Assembly: GCA_964291625.2 (NCBI GenBank)
Contig: OZ220089.1
Location: 3,808,001-3,872,000, forward strand
Direction: 5' to 3'
Length of the DNA: 64,000 bases
Source: Candidatus Latescibacterota bacterium
GTDB lineage: Bacteria > Latescibacterota > UBA2968 > UBA8231
How positions within the stretch are numbered: position 1 is the stretch's first letter; each line of letters opens with the position of its first letter. Under the pieces are notes generated by a model. It saw nothing but the letters and a program-made list of their open reading frames with translations, was not told the origin of the DNA and did not search any database. Positions 9,386 through 48,554 of the stretch are shown piece after piece. The translations under genes were made by a program, and so were the position numbers.

Positions 9386-10752
9386 CACTCACCGCCACCC
9401 TTCTCGCCATGGCGGCCCTCCTCGCCGCGTTTGCGGTTCTCCTGGCTGGTCTCAAGGCGATCGAGAAGAGAAGCCGTCTCCATCCCGAGCTCCTGCGCAA
9501 GGGCCTGCACGTCGTCATGGGGCTGGTCCTCCTTCCGTTGCCCTGGGTCTTCGATCGCGCCTGGCCGATGATCGCGCTGGCAGTCCTCGCCTGCGGCGCC
9601 ATGGTGGCGGCGCGCGCGAGTCGCCGCCTGCGCAGCGGCCTCGGCACGGTGATGGGCGGAGTGGGCCGGGACAGCCTCGGTGAGATCTACTTCCCCATCG
9701 CCGTCAGCCTCCTCTTCCTCCTCAGCCGCGGCGACTGGCTGCTCTACGTCGTTCCTATCCTCATGCTGGCGCTGGCGGACGCCGTCGCCGCCCTGGTGGG
9801 CATTCGCTACGGGCTGTCGCAGTACCGGACTTCGGACGGCCACAAGAGCCTCGAGGGCTCTCTCGCATTCTTCCTGGTGGCCTTCTTCAGCGCCCACCTT
9901 CCTCTCCTGCTCCTGACCGGCACGGGACGGGCCGAGGCCGTTCTGATCGCCGCGATCCTCGCCCTCCTCGTCATGATGCTGGAGTGCGTGGCGTGGCGCG
10001 GGCTGGACAACCTCTTCATCCCCCTGGGTGCCCACGCATTCCTTCGCCTCTACCTGGGTGCGGAGACCGGGCTTCTCCTCTTCCACCTGACGGTTGCCGT
10101 GGTCCTGACGGTCTTCTCACTGGCCTGGAGGCCGCGCAGGAAGCTCGACGACAGCGCCCTCATCGGATGCGCGCTCTTCGGCTACGCCGCCTTCGCGCTG
10201 GGCGGTTGGCTGTGGCTTCTCGGACCGGTGGTCTACTTCCTCGCCCTGATCCTGGTCTGGCCGCGCTCCCCCGCGGATCGTCCGCACACCGTGTATGCCA
10301 TGCTCGCGTCTTCCGCCGCGGGCCTGTGCTGGCTGTTCGCCCACTCCATCACCGGGAAGGGGTGGCTCCTGATCCCCTTCGCCGGCTCCTTCGCCGCACA
10401 GCTCACCCTGTATGGTGTCGCGAGGTTCGGCCACCTGCCCGACCGTGGACCGCGTTCGCTGCGCCTGGCCGGCGACATAGGTCTCGGCTGGCTCCTCATT
10501 CAATGCCCGACCCTGCTCATCGCATTCGCATACGGTCTCGCCGACCTGGCGTCCGACGCCCCCGTACTGGATGTCCCCGGTCTGTTGAGCGACCTCGGTC
10601 TCGGTCTGGCGGCCACCAGTCTGGTTGCCGTGGTCTTCTACCTGCTGGTGCCGCGAATCTACGGTCCACCCATGCGGGAGGCCGCGATCAACCCCACCTT
10701 CGCCACCCTCGGCGCGGGGGCGTCGGTCGTGGCGGGGCTGCGTTGGCTTTGA
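9382..10752 (+). CDS. CTP-dependent dolichol/phytol kinase-like (cytidylyltransferase family) membrane protein
   Basis: ELLRKGLHV, SLGEIYFP, DAVAALVG..YG, KSLEGS, GLDNLFIP motifs; long hydrophobic C-terminal extension; ATGA coupling. Confidence 0.78.
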   Translation: MTLTATLLAMAALLAAFAVLLAGLKAIEKRSRLHPELLRKGLHVVMGLVLLPLPWVFDRAWPMIALAVLACGAMVAARASRRLRSGLGTVMGGVGRDSLGEIYFPIAVSLLFLLSRGDWLLYVVPILMLALADAVAALVGIRYGLSQYRTSDGHKSLEGSLAFFLVAFFSAHLPLLLLTGTGRAEAVLIAAILALLVMMLECVAWRGLDNLFIPLGAHAFLRLYLGAETGLLLFHLTVAVVLTVFSLAWRPRRKLDDSALIGCALFGYAAFALGGWLWLLGPVVYFLALILVWPRSPADRPHTVYAMLASSAAGLCWLFAHSITGKGWLLIPFAGSFAAQLTLYGVARFGHLPDRGPRSLRLAGDIGLGWLLIQCPTLLIAFAYGLADLASDAPVLDVPGLLSDLGLGLAATSLVAVVFYLLVPRIYGPPMREAAINPTFATLGAGASVVAGLRWL

Positions 10753-10904
10753 CCCTGGCCCGATTTGTCCGGCTGTCGGTGGCCGGGAGCCTCGTCCTCG
10801 CGGTGTACGCCCACTATGAGGTGGCGGACGAGGACTGGAGGGAGGTCGTCGAAGGCGCCCAACGGGACATCCGGGCAGGACTGGACGCGCTGGCCGGCCG
10901 ATGA
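10749..10904 (+). CDS. 51-aa micro-ORF coupled to both neighbours
   Basis: TTGA overlap with the upstream stop and ATGA overlap with the downstream start; exactly fills the gap in the operon. Confidence 0.45.
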   Translation: MTLARFVRLSVAGSLVLAVYAHYEVADEDWREVVEGAQRDIRAGLDALAGR

Positions 10905-11899
10905 GCCCCTTTTCCACTATCGACCGGGTCGAGGATCTGGCGGCGCTGCGGGCCGGTCCGGTGGAGCCGTTGCAGGCCGAGGACTTCCTGCTCACCGGGC
11001 CCTCCCGCCATCTCGCATTGCAGGACGCGACGGGCGGGTTGCTGGCCCGGTGCTCGCTGTGGAGGGCCCGCGACGCCCATGGCGAGCCGACCCCCGCCGG
11101 CCTGATCGGACACTATGCCGCTCTCGATGCCGATGCCGGCCGGGCGCTGCTGGAACACGCCTCGGACTGGCACCGGTCCGAAGGGTGTGAACGGGTCATC
11201 GGTCCCATGGACGGCTCCACCTGGCACCGCTACAGGCTGCTGACCGAGCGCGGAACGGAACCGACCTTCTTCCTGGAGCCCGACAATCCCGACGACTGGC
11301 CCCGGCACTTCGCCGCCGCCGGATTCGTGCCGCTGGCCACCTACACCTCGGCGCTCAACTCCGACCTCCACCAGTTCGACCCGCGCTCGGACCGGCGGCG
11401 GTCCGAACTCGAACGGAAGGGCATCACCATTCGCACGATCGACGTCGAGCGCTTCGACGTCGACCTCGCCGCCATTCACGAGCTGTCGCTGGCGGCGTTC
11501 GCGGACAACTTCCTCTTCAGCCCCATCTCGCTCGAGGCCTTCGTCGCCTCCTACACTCCGATCCGTCCCTTTCTCGTCCCCGAGCTCGTCCTGCTCGCGG
11601 AGCAGCGCGGGCAACTCGTCGGTTTCGTCTTCGGCATCCCGGATCTCATGGAACCGGCGCGAGGCGATCCCCGACGCACGGTGGTCGTCAAGTCGCTGGC
11701 CGTGCATCCGTCGTCCGCTGGGAACGGCCTCGGCGGTCTGTTGGTGGACGACTGTCAGCAGGCGGCAAGGAAGCTCGGGTTCGAGCGCGCCATTCACGCG
11801 CTGATGCACGAGAGCAACCTGTCCCGGAGGATCTCGGCTCGCTACGGCACCGTGATCCGCCGCTACACTCTCTACGAGAAACCGTTGGTCCGGGAATGA
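10901..11899 (+). CDS. Tandem GNAT-family N-acyltransferase
   Basis: IGPMDGSTWHRYRL, FFLEPDNP, AFADNFLFSPI, VVKSLAVHP...GNGLGGLL (acyl-CoA binding motif), HALMHESN. Confidence 0.8.
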   Translation: MSPFSTIDRVEDLAALRAGPVEPLQAEDFLLTGPSRHLALQDATGGLLARCSLWRARDAHGEPTPAGLIGHYAALDADAGRALLEHASDWHRSEGCERVIGPMDGSTWHRYRLLTERGTEPTFFLEPDNPDDWPRHFAAAGFVPLATYTSALNSDLHQFDPRSDRRRSELERKGITIRTIDVERFDVDLAAIHELSLAAFADNFLFSPISLEAFVASYTPIRPFLVPELVLLAEQRGQLVGFVFGIPDLMEPARGDPRRTVVVKSLAVHPSSAGNGLGGLLVDDCQQAARKLGFERAIHALMHESNLSRRISARYGTVIRRYTLYEKPLVRE

Positions 11900-17313: not shown

Positions 17314-18744
17314 TCACCAGCGGAATTCTGAAGGGTTGCTTACCAGCTCGGACAGGAACTGCCATGTTTGAGGCGCGAGCAGGTATCCGGAGTTTTTCGC
17401 CTGCCATGCGAGCAGTTCCGAGCTCACACCGAACCGCGAACGGAGTGACCGAGCGGCGTACCCTTCGTTGCCTTCATGTTCCGAGACCACCTGTCCGGCG
17501 ATCTGGCGGGGCAACAGCAACTCGGCAGCGAAGGCGCGAGCCCGCTGCTCGACGTGCCTGGCGGTCCTGCCGCCGAGCACGTCAACGAGCGGCAATGAAC
17601 TCGAGCGATCGACCAGGAGGTGACAGATCTCGTGCGCCAGCGTCGCTCTCCTTCGGGCTGAGCTCGCGTGTCGGGCGTCCGAGTTCAGCAGCACGGCTGG
17701 ACCGTGACTCGGTCCCCAGCATCCGATAGCGTCGATGTCCCCAAGCCCGAGGCCTGCGTCCATGAGCGGCACACTCCACGGCGCAAGGATCTGCTCTGGA
17801 TCGACGCGTCCACCGGGGTGAACGATCTCCGGCTGTCCCCGCAGCCAACCGGCCAGCGTGTATCCCTGCATGAACGGCCGCTCGTCATGCGTGTCAGCAA
17901 GCACCGTCAGCGCGTCTTGGGAGGCTCGGTCCAGCTCTGACTTGTCGGACAACGGTACGCGCCTCAGGGCCTCAAGGATCGGTTTCAGAGTAGTCCGCGG
18001 CTGCGGTCCGACCAGTCGCGCCGCGGCCAGTAGTTCATCGGAGCGGGGAGTGGTCCAGTCACGCTCATCCTCGGAGTAGAAGATCGACTCGACCTCGGCC
18101 ACAAGCTCCGGGGTATACCCGGTGGCAGCCTCGATGACCTTCAGCCGGCTGTGGCTGTCTCGTGCATGCCACGACCGGACCGCCTCGCGCGACCGGGCGT
18201 CGGACACGCCATTCAACCTCGACGCAATGCAGTCCCCTACTTTGCGCAAGACATCGAGTAGCTCGTGGAACGGGGCCTTCGCCGTCGCTGTCGTCGAGGC
18301 CGCCCAACCGGTGTTGCCGTCTCGCACGATCCACAGCGGCGGCATTGCTGCTCCCTGCACGGCTTCTGCCAGATCATGGGTCATGCGGTATGCCTCAAGC
18401 TGCTCACCCTCACGCCCGAGGTCAGACCCCAGAGGTGAACCCGACTCGACTGCCATCTCGGAGGCTGCGACCATCCGCGGGACGGTGTCCAGGGCGACGC
18501 CGAGGGGAGCCCCGTCTTCGATGGCCAGGTACAGCCAGGACTCTGCCAGAAACTCCAGAAGCTCGATCCACGTCCACTCGAAGCCCGAGGCCGCGTCCGG
18601 ACCGTGCCAGATCGCCTTGCCTCGCAGGCTCACCCTGAGGCTTCCTCTGGTCGCGTTGGTCGCTGAAGTCCTCGGGCCTCCGGCCAGCCAGTCCAGCGAG
18701 ATCTCGATGTCGCCATCGGATGACCGTGCTACCAGTTCATCCAT
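17314..18744 (-). CDS. ImmA/IrrE-like (Peptidase M78) metallopeptidase with long novel N-terminal domain (module A)
   Basis: RRRATLAHEICH (HExxH), EQRARAFAAELLLP, LRSRFGVS; RBS GGAGG before ATG 18744; overlaps the upstream small gene by 16 nt. Confidence 0.85.
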   Translation of the reverse strand: MDELVARSSDGDIEISLDWLAGGPRTSATNATRGSLRVSLRGKAIWHGPDAASGFEWTWIELLEFLAESWLYLAIEDGAPLGVALDTVPRMVAASEMAVESGSPLGSDLGREGEQLEAYRMTHDLAEAVQGAAMPPLWIVRDGNTGWAASTTATAKAPFHELLDVLRKVGDCIASRLNGVSDARSREAVRSWHARDSHSRLKVIEAATGYTPELVAEVESIFYSEDERDWTTPRSDELLAAARLVGPQPRTTLKPILEALRRVPLSDKSELDRASQDALTVLADTHDERPFMQGYTLAGWLRGQPEIVHPGGRVDPEQILAPWSVPLMDAGLGLGDIDAIGCWGPSHGPAVLLNSDARHASSARRRATLAHEICHLLVDRSSSLPLVDVLGGRTARHVEQRARAFAAELLLPRQIAGQVVSEHEGNEGYAARSLRSRFGVSSELLAWQAKNSGYLLAPQTWQFLSELVSNPSEFRW

Positions 18745-19118
18745 CGCCGCACCTCCCTCTCGCATCCCTGCTGAATGGCCCGTTGCAGCAGCTCCTGCTT
18801 GATCGCCCTCGCGTTACGAGTGCGCGGGAATCCCGCAGGGTGCTCGGGGAAACCATGGTACGAGGCTCCTGGGTTGGTCGGCGCAGCACGATAGACGACA
18901 CCGTCTCGGACCGCGTACAGCCGCTGAGGGTATGGCCGGCTCCAGCGGGGAGGATAGTAGGGAACCGCATCGTCAAGAAGCGCCTGCGCGTCGGACAGGT
19001 TCAACGTCGCGGGACACTTGCCGACAAGGCTCGGCCCGACTTCGACGAACCCGGCATGGTCCTTGTTCCAGTGGTGCTTGCGCTTGGGTTTCTCATCCGG
19101 TTCGTAGAGCCACGGCAT
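18729..19118 (-). CDS. Small hypothetical protein, putative toxin/effector of module A
   Basis: RBS GGGGAG; MPWLYEPDEKPKRKHHW..GKCP..AQALLDDAV..YPQRLYAVRDGVVY..SYHGFP; motif order shared with 46888-47310. Confidence 0.72.
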   Translation of the reverse strand: MPWLYEPDEKPKRKHHWNKDHAGFVEVGPSLVGKCPATLNLSDAQALLDDAVPYYPPRWSRPYPQRLYAVRDGVVYRAAPTNPGASYHGFPEHPAGFPRTRNARAIKQELLQRAIQQGCEREVRRWMNW

Positions 19119-19647
19119 GTCAGTCTCCCCATCCGCCATCAGGGCCAATGCCGTTCTGCCCCCACGGCACGCAGCCGACCGGCTTGGTGAACAACTATAC
19201 GATCTGCCGAGGAATGGTGCGTCGGCTCGCACCGGGTGGACTGGACGGCCGGGCTCGGCTGGGTGAGTACAACCTCGCCGGCCGCGGGCTCGCCGCGCTC
19301 GAGGAAGGGGTCCTCCACCGCCAGGTCGAGGCCGGCCCGGAGCCCTGGTCCTGCCTTCGGAGTTCTCGAGCCGAAGGTCGACCAGGTGCTGTCCGGACGG
19401 CAGGGGCGGCTCGGCTGCCTCCGCGCCGACCGTCGCCTCACCCCGGGCCGCTGGTCCGGCATGGACGCGAAGCAGGTTTGGTGGGTGGCGCCCACGACGA
19501 AAGGGCTTCTCAGTGTGGAAAGAGCATGCGGCTCCCGCCGCCGAGCACGGCCGTTCCCCGGGAACTCCGCTTTCATCGGTGCCATGGGGGGTATACCTTC
19601 GACGCCGGTTCGCCGCAGCGCCCCATCTTCTCGGGAAAGGGAAGCAA

Positions 19648-20817
19648 ATGACCGCCGACTCGCCATCCACCTACCGCGCCCCCGCCTTCGCCGACTCCCT
19701 GCCCGAGCTCGCCGGTCCCGGCGCCACGCCGGAGAGGCTGGCCCACCTGCGGGAGCACGGCTTCGTCATCATCACCGACTTCGTCGACAACCCGTGGATC
19801 CCCGTCCTCCGCGAGGCCGGCCGCCGGATCACCGAGGCGTGCGCTCCGGAGAACGGGTACGACCGCATCGACTGCTCCCGGGGCTACGTCCACCGCGCCG
19901 CCGAGGACGAGCCGTGGGCGATCCGCGGCCTCGTCCACCCCGCCTTCGGGGAGCCGGACTTCGCCGCCTTCCACGGCTCCGACGACTTCCTGGGCTTCAT
20001 CGAGTCCTGGTGCGGCGGGCTGCAGCGGGAGGACCTGGCGTTCTCGGGTCTGCTGCTGTGGTGCAACCCCCGCAAGCGCGAGAACAAGCTCGGCTGGCAC
20101 CGGGACACGACCTGGTGGGGCACCGGCCGGCCCTACCGGGCCCAGGGCGGCGAGGAGCCCGAGGGCCCCGAAGCGTACTCCGAGGAGGTGGAGCGCAAGC
20201 GCTGGAAGGAGATCCAGGAGAGCAACGCCAAGTCGATCACCGAGCGCAACGGCGTGAGCATGTTCCTGGCCCTGACCGACGACGAGTGCCACGAGCTGAT
20301 CCCGGGATCCCACGACCGCTGGCGCACCCCCCTGGAGCACGACGTGCTGCTGCCCAAGGCGATGAAGGAGAAGGGGGTCCCCCACACCCCGAGCTGGAAC
20401 GGCGAGGACCCCCTGCCCGGCCAGACCGCCATCCGCCTCAAGGCCGGGGAGGCCCTCATCCGCAACGGCGCCACGATCCACACCGGCCACTGCGTCCCCG
20501 ACCGCGAGCGCAACACCCTCTCCATCGGCTGGTCGAAGTGGGGCGGCCCCCCCACCGGCGAGCCGACCGTGGCCGACGCCCGCAGTGCCTGGCAGCTCGA
20601 CCCGGCGGTGCGCGAGGCCCTGCCCCACGACTGGATGAAGACCGCCTGGGACCGCTGGGCCGAGACCCAGAAGCTCGGCGACACCCTCGAGGACCGCTAT
20701 GCCGGCTACGACATCAAGCGCATCAAGTCCGGCGAGGTCGTCGGCTGGCGCAGCGAGCTGGAGCGCCAGGCCGCGGCGGCGGGGGAGGACTGGAAGCCGT
20801 TCCAGACGGCGGCGTGA
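19648..20817 (+). CDS. Phytanoyl-CoA dioxygenase (PhyH)-like 2OG-Fe(II) oxygenase
   Basis: HLREHGFVII, LGWHRD (HxD), LIPGSH, LKAGEALI..TIHTG..R jelly-roll motifs. Confidence 0.78.
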   Translation: MTADSPSTYRAPAFADSLPELAGPGATPERLAHLREHGFVIITDFVDNPWIPVLREAGRRITEACAPENGYDRIDCSRGYVHRAAEDEPWAIRGLVHPAFGEPDFAAFHGSDDFLGFIESWCGGLQREDLAFSGLLLWCNPRKRENKLGWHRDTTWWGTGRPYRAQGGEEPEGPEAYSEEVERKRWKEIQESNAKSITERNGVSMFLALTDDECHELIPGSHDRWRTPLEHDVLLPKAMKEKGVPHTPSWNGEDPLPGQTAIRLKAGEALIRNGATIHTGHCVPDRERNTLSIGWSKWGGPPTGEPTVADARSAWQLDPAVREALPHDWMKTAWDRWAETQKLGDTLEDRYAGYDIKRIKSGEVVGWRSELERQAAAAGEDWKPFQTAA

Positions 20818-21815
20818 GGGTCCCGCGGGCAGAGGTGAACGGCCCCGGGGCAAGCCGCGCCATCGTCGGGGTGGAGCCCTTCGACACCGGTTTCGGCGGC
20901 GGCTTCCAGGCCCGCGTCGACGCCCCCGAGGCGCTGGCCTGCGAGCTGGTCGAGGATGACGGGGCCTTCCGCGTCCATTCGCCTGCGGCGGCGCAGCGCC
21001 CCCGGCGCCTGGCCTTCGTCGACGGGACGATGCGCGTCGAGGCGGGACTCACCCTCACCGGCGAGCAGGGGACGGTGGCCGGCCTCGCGGGGAGCTGGGG
21101 AGCGGGCGCGGTGGTGGTCGATGGCCGGCAGCCGCTGAGCTTCGACCGGGTCGCGGTGGGGCGGTCGGCGATCTTCACCGCGGGGCAGCGCGTCGAGCTT
21201 CCTCCGCAGCCCGGCGGATGGTCCTGGGAGGCGGACTCCATCACCGGCACCGAGCTGGAGGCCGCCCGCGACCGCCTGCGCCGGCGGATGCGGGACACGG
21301 AGGCCGATATCGCCGAGGGGCTTTCCGAGAAGGGGTGGCTGACGGTGATCGACGGGCCCCTGCACAACATCCGCCGCACCCGCACCCTGCCGATCATCGG
21401 CTACGTCAAGACCCATCACCGGCCGATGCTGGCGCCCGAGGCCTGGAACCAGGTGCCGCAACTGCCGTCCGGGGAGCGCTCCGGACTGTTCGCCATGGGC
21501 GACGATCTCTACGGCTGTTACCTGCGCGTCGGGCAGCCGGGGCCCTGGGCCGGGCCGTGGGCCGGCATCGTGCGGCTCGAGGTGCCGGCCGGCGTCGGCC
21601 TCGGGCTGGCCGTGGAGACCGCGGAGGCCGCGGCGAGCTGGCTGCCGGACTTCGCCTCCGCCCCCCACCGGGACGTGCGCGCCCCGGTGAACATGGCGCC
21701 CGTGGCCGGACTGGAGCGCCATCTGCACCACCTCCAGGGAGACCCGCGCCTGGCGCTGCGCGCCGTGAGGGCCGCGGTCCTGCAACTCAACCGCGGGGCC
21801 GGGGAAGAGGCATGA
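20814..21815 (+). CDS. nurA: NurA-family 5'-3' nuclease
   Basis: LAFVDG, VIDGPL, IGYVKTH, ERSGLF, YLRV, GIVRLEV, DVRAPVNMAPVAGLERHL; directly upstream of a HerA ATPase. Start is GTG 20814 or 20835. Confidence 0.8.
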   Translation: MRVPRAEVNGPGASRAIVGVEPFDTGFGGGFQARVDAPEALACELVEDDGAFRVHSPAAAQRPRRLAFVDGTMRVEAGLTLTGEQGTVAGLAGSWGAGAVVVDGRQPLSFDRVAVGRSAIFTAGQRVELPPQPGGWSWEADSITGTELEAARDRLRRRMRDTEADIAEGLSEKGWLTVIDGPLHNIRRTRTLPIIGYVKTHHRPMLAPEAWNQVPQLPSGERSGLFAMGDDLYGCYLRVGQPGPWAGPWAGIVRLEVPAGVGLGLAVETAEAAASWLPDFASAPHRDVRAPVNMAPVAGLERHLHHLQGDPRLALRAVRAAVLQLNRGAGEEA

Positions 21816-23632
21816 GCGACCCGACGCGCATCGGCCTGGTGGACGGCTCGGTGGACAGCGACTCCCGGACCTTCCACGTGGTGCTCGACCCCGAGACGGT
21901 GATCCAGCTCGATGAGCTGGTGACGGTGACCACCGACCTGCCCGACGGCCGCGAGGTCATCCACTACGGGATCGTCACCGAGCTGCTCTCCCGCTTCGAG
22001 GGGGCGGATCTGCCCTCCGACACGGGCCGCGTCATCGACCGGACCCTGCCGGCCGAGCTGGTCCGCCGCGCCCAGGTGCGGGTGCTGCGGGTGCGGCCGG
22101 AGCTGTTCCTCGCGCCCCACGCCGGGGCGGCGGCCACCCGCGCCGAGGGCGACCACCGGAGCTTCGCCCTCTTCGAGGACGAGATGACCCGCGGCAAGCT
22201 GCCCCTGGGGCTGGACATGGGCGGCTCCCCGGTCTACGCCGACATGCGCTTCGTCGACGGCCGCTCGGGCGGCCACGTGTCGATCTCGGGGATCTCGGGC
22301 GTGGCCACCAAGACCTCCTATGCGCTCTTCCTGCTCTACCAGATGCTGGAGACGGAACCGGGCATGGAGCTGCTCGGCGGGCGCGCCCAGCGGGACGGGG
22401 TGCGGGCCCTGGTCTTCAACACCAAGGGCGAGGACCTGCTGCACCTGGACCGCGCCAACAGCGAGTTCGCCGGCAAGCCGGACCAGCACCAGCTGTGGCA
22501 GGCGCTGGGGGTGGACGACCCCGGCCCCTTCCGCTCGGTGCGGCTCTATGCCCCGCGCGGCTCCGCCAGAGGGGACCATCTCACGCCGGAGGTCCACTCC
22601 CGCGCCACGGGCGACGTGGAGGCCTACGGCTGGACGCCGGAGCGGTTCATCCGCGATCAGCTGTTGCAGTTCTGCTTCACCTCCGAGGACGAGCGGGCGA
22701 CGCAGGTCGGCTTCGTGGAGCAGCAGGTGCGGATCCAGCTCCTGCGCCGGCTGCGCCGGCTGGCGGGCGATTCCACGGGCGCCGTGGTGATCGCCCAGCG
22801 GATCCCCGCCGACACCGGCTACAACCCCGACCGCCTGGCCGAGCGCGAGCCGGAGGAGGTCCCCGCCGGGGACGGACACGTGATCCGCCAGTTCGGGGAC
22901 CTGATCGACCTGCTGGACCAGGCCGCCGCCGAGGAGGACGAGGCCTCGGTGGACACCTGGTTCGGCCGCACCCAGAGCGGCACCCGGCAGGCCTTCCTGC
23001 GGCGGCTGCTGCGCCTGCGCCGCCACCTCGGGCCCCTCGTCGGCTGCGGCCTGGAGCCCCTGTCGCTGGAGAACGCCCGTCTCCACGTGGTCGACATCTC
23101 CCGCCTCCACGACGACGCCCAGCGCTTCGTCGTGGGAGCCCTGCTCGACGGCATCTGGCGCGCCAAGCAGGGGACCGGCCGCCTGCCCCTGCGCTTCGTC
23201 GTCCTCGACGAGCTGAACAAGTACGCCCCGGCCCAGGGGTTCTCGCCGCTGAGGGACCTGCTGGTCGATATCGCCGAACGGGGCCGCTCCCTCGGGGTGC
23301 TGCTCATCGGCGCCCAGCAGGCGGCCTCCGCCGTAGCCCAGCCGCTGCCGCGCAACGCCTCGTTGAAGGTGGCCGGCCGCCTCGACGCCAGCGAGTCGGA
23401 GACCTACCGCTTCCTCACCCCGGCCCTGCGCGAGCGCGCCACCCGCTTCATGCCGGGGACCATGGTGGCCTCCCAGCCGATCGTGCCCGAGCCGATTCCC
23501 ATCCGCTTCCCCTTCCCGCCCTTCGCCACCAATCCCGACGAGGCGGCCGCGGACGAGGCCGCGGACCGGCAGCGGACCGACGCGATCCGGAGCAACCTGA
23601 ACGCCATGGCAGGCCCGGACCCGGACCTGTGA
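21812..23632 (+). CDS. herA: HerA-family ATPase/DNA translocase
   Basis: N-terminal HAS-barrel-like region, bacterial HerA Walker A variant SISGISGVATKTSY, FNTKGEDLL, Walker B VVLDELNKYAP, ERGRSLGVLLIGAQQ. Confidence 0.88.
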   Translation: MSDPTRIGLVDGSVDSDSRTFHVVLDPETVIQLDELVTVTTDLPDGREVIHYGIVTELLSRFEGADLPSDTGRVIDRTLPAELVRRAQVRVLRVRPELFLAPHAGAAATRAEGDHRSFALFEDEMTRGKLPLGLDMGGSPVYADMRFVDGRSGGHVSISGISGVATKTSYALFLLYQMLETEPGMELLGGRAQRDGVRALVFNTKGEDLLHLDRANSEFAGKPDQHQLWQALGVDDPGPFRSVRLYAPRGSARGDHLTPEVHSRATGDVEAYGWTPERFIRDQLLQFCFTSEDERATQVGFVEQQVRIQLLRRLRRLAGDSTGAVVIAQRIPADTGYNPDRLAEREPEEVPAGDGHVIRQFGDLIDLLDQAAAEEDEASVDTWFGRTQSGTRQAFLRRLLRLRRHLGPLVGCGLEPLSLENARLHVVDISRLHDDAQRFVVGALLDGIWRAKQGTGRLPLRFVVLDELNKYAPAQGFSPLRDLLVDIAERGRSLGVLLIGAQQAASAVAQPLPRNASLKVAGRLDASESETYRFLTPALRERATRFMPGTMVASQPIVPEPIPIRFPFPPFATNPDEAAADEAADRQRTDAIRSNLNAMAGPDPDL

Positions 23633-46887: not shown

Positions 46888-47310
46888 ATGGCGAGGAACC
46901 GTCCCCGTCCTCAACTCACCGATGACGAGCTTAGGACATTGGCCTCAAGAGCTCGCTATGAGGGAAGTGCCGAGCACAAGGTGGAGCGCTGGTGGGGAGG
47001 GCTTCCCGAGGGGAGTCAGATGCCCGGAGGGGGGACAGGAAGGCCCTGGAAGCAGAGCACCTCGATCTGTCCCCTCGTTGACCTCGCCGGAAAGAGGCGG
47101 GCTACAAGGATGCTCCGGAAGGCCATCACCAATGGTCAGTTCGAGTTTCTCGAGAGAGATAGAGACTTCCCCTCAAGGGTCTGGTACGAGGATAGGGAGG
47201 GCACACTCTGGAGTGGAAGTTGCTTCAACGGAGAGAGCGGAGAGTACAAGGGATGGCCCCTGACGCCTTCGGAGAAGCAGGACTTCAAGAAAAAGAAGAA
47301 GATCCCATGA
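46888..47310 (+). CDS. Small hypothetical protein, putative toxin/effector of module B
   Basis: RBS GGAGG; RYEGSAEHK..SICP..ATRMLRKAI..FPSRVWY..GEYKGWP; ATGA overlap with the downstream gene. Confidence 0.8.
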   Translation: MARNRPRPQLTDDELRTLASRARYEGSAEHKVERWWGGLPEGSQMPGGGTGRPWKQSTSICPLVDLAGKRRATRMLRKAITNGQFEFLERDRDFPSRVWYEDREGTLWSGSCFNGESGEYKGWPLTPSEKQDFKKKKKIP

Positions 47311-48554
47311 GGTTCGAGAGGGAGTGGATCGATTCCGGCCCCAACAAGTCGGAAGAGGAATCGGCCACTCTCTGCTATCTCCAGATCTGGCTTGGGAACA
47401 ACAACACCTGCAGGTTCCTCGATGCAAGGGAGAAGGCAGCCCATGAGTGGCTGCTCATGCCAGCTGTCAACCTTGCCGAAGGCCTGGCGATGGATTGGTG
47501 GAGCATCTTCGGGAAGAGGGACTACGAGCACCGCCTGCTGCTTCACAGACGTGGCTACCTGGTTCCCGATCTTGTTCTTGAATTCGATGGAACCCGATTC
47601 AGGATCTCCAGCAGGGGAGGATCCTGGCCGGAGGAAGTGCATTTCCATCCATGTGATCCGGCGTTCCTTTCCGAAGAAGAGCTCAGATCGACGGTTGGCG
47701 GCTTCATCGAAGACGTCGTGTCCCGTCTTCGGGGAAGGGGTATAGAGGACTGCACAACGGTATCCAGGTGGAGCAGAATACAGGAGTCTCTCGGAGACCC
47801 GGGAGAAACTCTCTTCTGCGAAGCTGCCGGAGCCCTTGAGCTTGACCCCTACTTCATGTCGGAGGCTGATGAGCGATTCATCGAAGGCATGGTCGAGCTC
47901 TTTCGCGACAGGGAATCGTTGGTCGAATTCCTTTCGGGCGTATCGGAGTACTCTTCGAATCGAAGACGGATCAAGGACTGGATGGACCAGATGGATGCCC
48001 GGTCCAGGGAAGAGTCAGAGCTGCCCGGTCTTCCAGGAATCGCTGAACAAGTGAGGGACCACCTGGGGAGTCGTGCAGATCGACCTTGGGCCATCGGATA
48101 TCGTGCGGCCAAGAAGTTCCGTGACCTCTTCCCGGGATCCTGGGTCCCCTCTTTCCGGGACTTGTCCACTTGCTTGGGAGCCCCCGAGTTCGCGGCCGTA
48201 GACTCGGACCCTCTTCCTGGCATCTTCGCCATGGGCTCTGCCGGAGAGGGTTCCCCCCGGGTCCACTTGCGCAAGCGGACCTCTCAGGAGGACCAGAACT
48301 TCGACTTTGCCAGAGCAGTGGGCTACGTAACCTGCTTCCCTGACTCTTCAAGATTCGTGGTCAACAACCTGCATCGATCGAGCCGGCAGGCCGTTACTCG
48401 AGCCTTTGCCGCGGAGTTGCTGGCCCCGGGAGAGATCGTCTCGGACATGCACGAGGAAGGCCATGACACCTACCTCATTGCCGATCGTCTCGGGGTTCCG
48501 ACCCAGGTTGTACAGCACCAGTTGGAGAACAGGCGCCGGATAGCTGCCGCTTAG
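47307..48554 (+). CDS. ImmA/IrrE-like protein lacking HExxH (module B)
   Basis: Colinear with 17314-18744 (RPWAIGY..A, TRAFAAELLAP, IADRLGV..V.HQLEN) but FDFARAVGY replaces TLAHEICH. Confidence 0.8.
   Translation: MRFEREWIDSGPNKSEEESATLCYLQIWLGNNNTCRFLDAREKAAHEWLLMPAVNLAEGLAMDWWSIFGKRDYEHRLLLHRRGYLVPDLVLEFDGTRFRISSRGGSWPEEVHFHPCDPAFLSEEELRSTVGGFIEDVVSRLRGRGIEDCTTVSRWSRIQESLGDPGETLFCEAAGALELDPYFMSEADERFIEGMVELFRDRESLVEFLSGVSEYSSNRRRIKDWMDQMDARSREESELPGLPGIAEQVRDHLGSRADRPWAIGYRAAKKFRDLFPGSWVPSFRDLSTCLGAPEFAAVDSDPLPGIFAMGSAGEGSPRVHLRKRTSQEDQNFDFARAVGYVTCFPDSSRFVVNNLHRSSRQAVTRAFAAELLAPGEIVSDMHEEGHDTYLIADRLGVPTQVVQHQLENRRRIAAA

Follow-up and report, generated by a model that had tools for sequence, protein, structure and literature searches.

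A small basic protein and a CdiI-like M78 peptidase protein as a candidate toxin-antitoxin cassette, present three times in a Latescibacterota genome

Two overlapping genes in the genome of a Candidatus Latescibacterota bacterium raise the question of what a small protein without a named family does beside a large protein that ends in a peptidase domain. The genes are located in a stretch of 64,000 nucleotides (nt), here called the window, which was analysed as a whole (contig OZ220089.1 of assembly GCA_964291625.2, positions 3,808,001 to 3,872,000). Both are on the minus strand. The small gene (positions 18729-19118 of the window) encodes P0002, a putative toxin of 129 amino acids (aa), and the large gene (17314-18744) encodes P0001, a protein of 476 aa. 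This pair is referred to as module A; the same genome contains two further modules of this kind, B and C. Taken as a whole, the findings are best explained if each module is a two-gene toxin-antitoxin (TA), or toxin-immunity, cassette, and this is the reading towards which we lean. Its central part, a toxin bound directly by its antitoxin, is likely.

The genes of module A share 16 nt, and the large-gene ATG at 18744 is preceded, at a distance of 7 nt, by a GGGAGG ribosome-binding motif. P0001 can be divided into three parts. Residues 1-175 (18220-18744, minus strand) form a CdiI-like domain, the predicted toxin-binding (immunity) domain. Residues 176-285 (17890-18219, minus) form a helical linker region. 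Residues 286-476, with the stop codon (17314-17889, minus), form a peptidase domain of the M78 (ImmA/IrrE) type (Pfam PF06114, Peptidase_M78; 43.2 bits against a cut-off of 22). The HEICH motif of this domain (residues 371-375; 17620-17634, minus) is intact, E399 is also present, and the sequence RAFAAELLLP occupies residues 403-412. In P0002, the conserved motifs are E-x-P-K-x-K-H-x-W, G-K-C-P and S-Y-H-G-F-P. An earlier note on this DNA, made from the letters alone, had described the overlapping pair with HEICH and RAFAAELLLP, and its coordinates, motifs and gene order are all correct. It had also placed modules A and B in patches of atypical codon usage. Their composition is indeed atypical: the guanine-plus-cytosine (GC) content is 0.65 over module A and 0.57 over module B as compared to approximately 0.70 in the surrounding region.

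Module B is on the plus strand. Its small gene (46888-47310) encodes P0003 (140 aa), a distant paralogue of P0002. Its large gene (47307-48554), which overlaps the small gene by 4 nt (ATGA), encodes P0004 (415 aa), a protein with the architecture of P0001 that carries a pseudo-peptidase. The earlier note was right about this remote second copy, its gene order and its overlap; its statement that the system is found twice falls short by one, as the genome has three modules. The third, module C (locus L026), is on the minus strand of the genome's contig 2. Its small gene (1447-1944) is an open reading frame (ORF) of 165 aa, the true start of which is probably internal, and its large gene (98-1468) encodes 456 aa; the two overlap by 22 nt. 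P0004 has the conserved domain Peptidase_M78 (35.1 bits against the cut-off of 22; Pfam E-value: 1.3e-8). The module C large protein has no Pfam match at an E-value of 0.001 or better. It matches P0004 in a phmmer search of a 374-protein set (E-value: 5.9e-12) and carries QRAFAAEFLCP towards its end, without HExxH.

As far as sequence comparison can tell, modules A and B are old, distant paralogues and not duplicates. With BLASTP, only 50 C-terminal residues of P0001 and P0004 align (E-value: 7e-5), and no alignment is obtained between P0002 and P0003 (best E-value: 0.65). A profile of 31 A-type large proteins aligns with the B-type over 298 columns (E-value: 8e-5, probability 61%). The claim that the large proteins align along their length is thus borne out by profiles and not by BLASTP. 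The profiles of the A and B small families align weakly (67 columns, E-value: 0.0029, probability 10.7%), with the motifs C-P, Y-P-x-R-[IV]-[YW] and G-x-Y-[HK]-G-[FW]-P in common. The relationship between these families is nevertheless firm because the module C small protein bridges them, matching both P0003 (E-value: 3e-12) and the A-type protein P0338 (E-value: 8e-11) by phmmer in the same 374-protein set.

Outside this genome the two genes travel together. When the A-type small-protein profile was run against one genome per species, 24 loci were found, and in 23 of these the small gene is followed directly by a relative of the large gene; the remaining locus ends 172 nt past the match. In a metagenome scan for the B-type, a B-type large gene is directly downstream in 20 of 22 loci, the two exceptions being cut off by a contig edge. 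Both families are therefore conserved and linked in many other genomes, far beyond chance. The A-type loci span six or more phyla, with hosts that include Acidimicrobiia, Planctomycetota, Myxococcota, one actinomycete and one genome labelled Latescibacterota. Within the Latescibacterota the distribution is patchy: among 168 genomes (the window's own included), three have the A-type and nine have the B/C-type. An A-type module is also present on the pAt plasmid of a cultured organism, Agrobacterium tumefaciens (NZ_CP048538.1; L049, 3546-6703), where genes for proteins of 148 aa and 467 aa overlap by 4 nt, the motif HELCH is intact and the module adjoins a VapC/Phd pair. These genes are annotated as "hypothetical protein" and "ImmA/IrrE family metallo-endopeptidase", and a second Agrobacterium plasmid (NZ_CP039924.1) gives the same match. 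A tblastn search of 50,697 phage records gave no match. Around modules A and B, neither direct nor inverted repeats that would convincingly mark a border were found. A search for promoter-like sites gave none, and terminator-like sites occur at chance level. The three paralogous modules, the patchy distribution, the low GC content and the plasmid copy beside VapC/Phd are in line with the lifestyle of a TA system.

Where only one gene of a module is broken, it is the small gene. The closest relative of module A, at a locus in the same genus (L007), has an intact large gene, the product of which is 90% identical to P0001. Its small gene (10001-10354) is pseudogenised, with a premature stop after G-K-C-P-A-T and a frameshifted stretch. 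At two further loci (L022 and L024) the small gene is deleted or frameshifted and the large gene is again intact, and at two others (L010 and L013) both genes are broken. An intact small gene with a lost large-gene N-terminal domain occurs at none of the 23 loci. The sample is small, and this asymmetry fits the pattern expected for a small toxin and a large antidote. Two features of type II TA systems are thus present: adjacent, co-directional and overlapping genes that travel together, and loss of the toxin gene alone at three of the 23 loci as against none in the reverse direction. In L021, masked bases at approximately 10640-11150 (X in the translation) interrupt the large gene, and its middle part is not judgeable.

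The N-terminal part of the large protein, a stretch of about 280 aa that the earlier note had called unfamiliar, can now be placed in part. In a structure comparison of the P0001 model (predicted local distance difference test, pLDDT, 87.5), residues 4-173 fold like a CdiI immunity protein, and residues 176-285 are helical in the model. At the sequence level, the large protein has no match to any Pfam CdiI or CdiA family. The note's remark that the pair has no helix-turn-helix (HTH) repressor agrees with the library scans, in which no HTH or other DNA-binding family was found in either protein (Pfam, NCBIfam, PADLOC and PHROGs). The large proteins are acidic, with a family median isoelectric point (pI) of 5.23 (31 sequences) and a pI of 4.48 for the N-terminal domain of P0001.

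The small proteins are basic (median pI 9.31 for 28 A-type sequences and 9.51 for 12 B-type sequences). P0002 and P0003 belong to no family in Pfam, NCBIfam or PADLOC, and match none of the PADLOC families, RmrT included, at an E-value of 1 or better. In PHROGs there are only two chance-level matches, both for P0002 (E-values: 0.18 and 0.28), and a comparison with PDB sequence profiles gives chance TPR matches or none. Relatives in the ESM Atlas are unnamed "hypothetical protein" clusters. The A-type small-protein profile finds 307 clusters at 50% identity (E-value of 0.001 or better). The best 150 of these 307 are all 70-283 aa, and no long fused form occurs among those 150 representatives. 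On our reading, the small proteins are a toxin family without prior annotation. Eighteen positions are invariant in the 28 A-type small proteins, including E9, K12, K14, H15, W17, K34, C35, T81, S86, Y87, H88, F90 and P91. The most conserved stretch is an extended N-terminal arm (residues 5-17), which is modelled with lower confidence. In the B-type small family the N-terminal arm is conserved to the same degree (E29, H30, K31, W35 and W36).

With Foldseek, the small-protein model has no match in PDB or BFVD at an E-value of 0.001 or better. In a second look, six of the eight rows listed are toxins (CdiA-CT, ParE2, PrpT, RelE2, RelE1 and colicin D), with scores below the level that the tool treats as convincing. 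The best match is CdiA-CT, and in a wide search YxiD, MafB2-CT, HigB and Nsp15 are also among the matches listed. A toxin-like small alpha/beta fold, perhaps that of a ribonuclease (RNase), is suggested by these models and is a lead rather than a result. Kinship with the BECR-fold RNase toxins (barnase, EndoU, colicin E5/D and RelE) is suggested no more firmly than that. An RNase is nevertheless the leading candidate for the activity of the putative toxin, at slightly less than even odds. A single cognate pair from contact-dependent inhibition (CDI) as the source of both folds is not supported: the CdiI of 5t87 is absent from the 50 rows obtained for the large-protein model.

Direct binding between the two proteins is predicted. 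The complex model of the module A pair scores 0.85 (0.85, 0.86 and 0.84 in the individual runs), as compared to 0.19 for the best control. In the calibration, which applies here only roughly, a score this high was attained by 116 of 157 solved complexes and by 2 of 215 mismatched pairs. Contacts agree between the runs to at least 97%, with a pLDDT of 87 or more for the partner. On the large protein, all confident contacts are in residues 28-211, a stretch made up of the CdiI-like domain and the beginning of the linker, and none are in the peptidase. Among the predicted contacts are those of large-protein residues 45-58 and 130-135 with small-protein residues 27-33. The predicted interface contains two invariant residues of the large protein (W46 and W57) and six of the small protein (E9, K14, H15, T81, F90 and P91).

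The peptidase domain is intact in A-type modules and dead in the other two. H371, E372, H375 and E399 are invariant among 31 A-type large proteins, indicating that activity is under selection. In P0004, the sequence FARAVGYVTC (48306-48335, plus strand) takes the place of HExxH and the third metal ligand is replaced by Q. The same is seen in all 13 of the B/C-type large proteins aligned (P0004, 11 B-type relatives from metagenomes and the module C protein): HExxH is replaced by F-[AST]-R-A-V-G-D or a variant, and the third ligand has changed from Glu to Q. As this replacement is itself conserved, it indicates a maintained pseudo-peptidase and not decay, and the B/C-type large proteins are, to judge by the alignment, pseudo-peptidases that retain the fold. 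The earlier note had assigned an IrrE/ImmA-like peptidase to both copies in the window. The domain is indeed present in A and B; the intact catalytic site is confined to A, and the replacement in B had been missed. That the B/C modules rely on an A-type peptidase in trans was considered and rejected as a general rule, since six genomes of the phylum (92-96% complete) have a B/C-type small gene and no A-type one.

The mechanism that we propose for these modules is as follows. The small basic protein would be the toxin, most likely a nucleic acid-directed enzyme of the small alpha/beta type (as in CdiA-CT, RelE/ParE and colicin D). The large acidic protein would be the antitoxin, with its N-terminal CdiI-like domain holding the toxin. 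In the A-type, a signal would activate the M78 peptidase; by comparison with CapP and PprI, the candidates are single-stranded DNA and other indications that a phage has attacked or DNA has been damaged. Once active, the peptidase would break down the antitoxin or process the complex, the toxin would be freed and growth would stop. In the B/C-type, the M78 domain may be a conserved non-catalytic relic that could still sense or scaffold. Published work describes the nearest structural relatives of the M78 domain as peptidases that single-stranded DNA or DNA damage activates. Because of these relatives and the strict selection on the A-type catalytic site, the peptidase is proposed as the trigger that inactivates the antitoxin. 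Such a role as a signal-triggered release switch, which is drawn by analogy, is possible and at the same time doubtful.

The surroundings of the modules were scanned with PADLOC at 23 A-type loci, taking three genes per side as called by a crude ORF picker. Strong, near-full-length matches to defence genes are found at eight of the 23. HmaA, HmaB or HmaC occurs at four (L001, L004, L005 and L006), and L006 has AbiL and a type II restriction enzyme as well. Two modules are inside DISARM: that of L014 is flanked by DrmA and, at its opposite end, by DrmMI/DrmD, and L018 has DrmMI directly upstream and DrmA downstream. A complete type I restriction-modification (R-M) system is directly upstream in L019, and BrxC is directly downstream in L021. 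The other 15 loci have no strong named defence match; one of these (L002) has a match to PDC-S11, a candidate family. The modules of L010 and L018 have classical TA pairs nearby, L004 has a PIN gene and a TnpB gene, and L008 has an ISL3 transposase. The remainder of the 15 loci have housekeeping genes or genes of no known kind as neighbours. The enrichment of defence neighbours is suggestive.

Some of these islands are worth describing further. In L014 (4727-19147) and L018 (6022-18076), which are myxobacterial/deltaproteobacterial, the module is between the class 1 DISARM genes DrmA, DrmMI and DrmD; a Schlafen/AlbA_2 gene is also present in L014, and ParDE and a PDC-M02B candidate in L018. 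In L004 (2177-16787) and L006 (4443-17565), which are from sponge-associated Acidimicrobiales, the module is within an Hma (helicase-methylase-ATPase) island that also holds PDC-S01, a PIN gene, AbiL, an XhoI-type restriction enzyme and a TnpB/IS605 element. In the Latescibacterota genome itself, the neighbours of module A are genes for an Omp85-like protein and DUF4956 and a PhyH-like gene. Module B is near genes for a pyridine-nucleotide oxidoreductase, a glyoxalase, an inositol-1-phosphate synthase and a LysR regulator, and module C is near a GFO/IDH oxidoreductase gene. Approximately 1.7 kb from module A (20853-23632, plus strand), there is a pair that resembles, by eye, a NurA-type nuclease followed by a HerA-type ATPase (within ORFs 19236-21815 and 21218-23632). 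The ATPase ORF matches PADLOC mad8 (E-value: 3.4e-15) and nothing in Pfam at an E-value of 0.001 or better, and a HerA-like gene is in the matching position at the same-genus locus L007 (PADLOC HerA, E-value: 5.8e-9).

Several observations weigh against the TA reading or parts of it. The predicted interface shows no excess of invariant small-protein residues: it contains six of the 18 and makes up about one third of the chain, so occlusion of an active site by the large protein is not established. The score of the complex expresses how confident the model is in its own prediction, and analyst-made alignments were used, so that its calibration is only rough. The three copies in this genome sit among housekeeping genes and not defence genes. 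The earlier note had proposed a check for defence-island enrichment, and the count of eight loci in 23 goes some way towards such enrichment; it comes without a background control, includes four Hma loci that are close relatives and depends on the crude ORF picker, and 15 loci do not contribute to it. With regard to the switch, the catalytic residues are absent from 13 of 13 B/C-type large proteins examined, and six Latescibacterota genomes have B/C-type modules without an A-type module. Proteolysis is therefore not essential to the basic module, which weakens the idea that the peptidase acts as a switch.

The main rival to a TA cassette is that the pair controls immune operons next to it, as CapH/CapP, ImmR/ImmA or DdrO/IrrE do. 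In that case the small protein would be no toxin, and would instead be a repressor or signalling partner that is bound and cleaved by the peptidase protein after DNA damage. Four observations are in line with this: the module is inside DISARM in L014 and L018 and beside Hma, BREX and R-M genes elsewhere; published work places genes of the CapH/CapP kind with DISARM and other systems; the small protein is basic, like DNA binders; and the peptidase domain has a CapP-like fold. However, the library scans found no HTH or other DNA-binding family in either protein. The predicted contact is on the CdiI-like domain, away from the peptidase site, and the B/C peptidases are dead yet conserved. The arrangement also differs, as CapH/CapP is described upstream of and opposite to its operon, whereas the L018 module is co-directional and mid-operon and the L014 module converges on drmMI. 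Fifteen of the 23 loci, along with the three copies in this genome, are without a strong named defence neighbour, L002 having only the candidate PDC-S11. Finally, loss of the small gene with retention of the large gene is unexpected for a repressor and its dedicated protease. We regard this explanation as unlikely.

A second alternative keeps the toxin and the antitoxin and changes the target of the peptidase: the large protein would bind the small protein and cleave it, either inactivating or maturing it, and would not be a self-destroying switch. The invariance of the catalytic residues in all 31 A-type sequences would suit such a role, the conserved N-terminal arm of the small protein could be the cleavage site, and the toxin is predicted to be tethered to the very polypeptide that bears the peptidase. 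On the other hand, the complex model has no contact with the M78 domain, and the B family keeps the arm despite its dead peptidase, meaning that the arm is not conserved as a peptidase substrate. Cleavage of the toxin by its antitoxin thus has a small chance of being correct, slightly below that of the regulatory explanation.

Orphan toxin-immunity cassettes are a known feature of polymorphic toxin and CDI systems, and the best fold matches of both proteins are from contact-dependent inhibition (CdiA-CT and CdiI). The modules could accordingly be stranded cassettes of this type, each with an exported interbacterial toxin and an immunity gene used in competition. This is improbable for four reasons: the small protein is not the C-terminal domain of a long secreted protein in any of the best 150 of the 307 clusters; no delivery domain or secretion gene is found among the neighbours, either in the window or at the 23 loci; the immunity-like domain is fused to a regulator peptidase of cytoplasmic type; and the two fold matches are from different CDI systems and not from one cognate pair. 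The least probable explanation reverses the roles, making the large M78 protein the toxin and the small protein the antitoxin, as might be suggested by an older comparative genomics review, in which the protease family COG2856 is listed among putative toxins and has Xre as its partner, and by the name "toxin" given to CapP by its PDB depositors, but the three loci with an intact large gene and a broken small gene would be lethal were the small protein the antidote, the B/C-type large proteins are without catalytic residues, and later work gives the peptidase protein the antitoxin role.

Returning to the TA cassette, the closest published systems are RosmerTA (RmrT/RmrA) and the NetFlax ImmA hub. 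In these reports, an antitoxin with an M78/ImmA zinc peptidase is paired with a small variable toxin, the toxin-first gene order is common and members are found in defence islands; a small N-terminal HTH is often, though not universally, present in the NetFlax ImmA-domain antitoxins. The modules described here resemble RosmerTA in being two-gene units with an M78 antitoxin candidate and a small variable partner, and P0001 matches 13 PADLOC RmrA models (best E-value: 1.1e-11). However, the best RmrA match covers only the peptidase core (P0001 residues 336-466 against positions 181-307 of 394), P0004 matches no PADLOC model and neither P0002 nor P0003 matches an RmrT model. In addition, a 175-residue CdiI-like domain and a helical linker are present where the RmrA-type HTH usually sits, and the catalytic site has been lost in two of the three lineages in this genome. 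The pair thus lacks the three RmrA/RmrT features examined (a full-length match, an HTH and an RmrT partner) while being similar in design.

Two other groups of systems share parts of this design. As in CdiA-CT/CdiI, the putative toxin is basic and its partner acidic, direct binding is predicted and the partner has the CdiI immunity fold. Unlike in those systems, the toxin is encoded by a free-standing gene and is not the tip of a giant secreted CdiA (among the best 150 of 307 clusters), the immunity domain and a peptidase form one protein, and the fold matches come from unrelated CDI systems, with no Pfam CdiI or CdiA match. Module A shares the HExxH...E metal site with CapP/CapH, IrrE(PprI)/DdrO and ImmA/ImmR, and CapP/CapH is, according to published work, likewise found with DISARM and other defence operons. 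Here, however, there is no HTH partner or fusion and the partner is toxin-like; the position and orientation relative to the operon are not those described for CapH/CapP, and most copies are without an adjacent operon.

The earlier note had suggested an undescribed TA or anti-phage system. A conserved, linked pair with a decay pattern that fits a TA system is indeed present, but the combination of a zinc peptidase antitoxin and a variable toxin has already been published, so the pair is not of a wholly undescribed kind. What appears to be new is the CdiI-like immunity domain in the place of the HTH, the unannotated family of putative toxins, and the existence of sister lineages with a conserved dead peptidase. 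No description of the CdiI-like and M78 architecture was found in open full texts, one of the searches being noisy and the NetFlax supplementary datasets, which could hold the pair, lying outside the scope.

Peptidase-bearing antitoxins such as RosmerTA and its relatives are known to defend against phages, and in the modules described here the toxin binder is a recognisable immunity domain and not an HTH. The intact and naturally dead peptidases of sister lineages within one genome provide ready-made controls for the role of the peptidase. The small proteins make up a sizeable unannotated family with sharply conserved residues that invites biochemistry. The repeated placement of modules inside DISARM and Hma operons suggests that these cassettes accompany or back up larger defence systems. 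In the most specific form of the proposal, each A-type antitoxin would be a one-piece "fuse", in which a toxin-caging immunity domain is welded to a damage- or phage-sensing M78 peptidase that cuts its own or a neighbouring copy, thereby freeing the toxin. This form is rather unlikely as it stands. If it is true, the antitoxin would be self-destroying and would need neither a host protease nor a transcriptional step, the B/C-type would be the same scaffold evolving into a non-catalytic sensor or a plain immunity protein, and the small proteins would be a new family of intracellular toxin enzymes that is related in fold to the CDI toxins.

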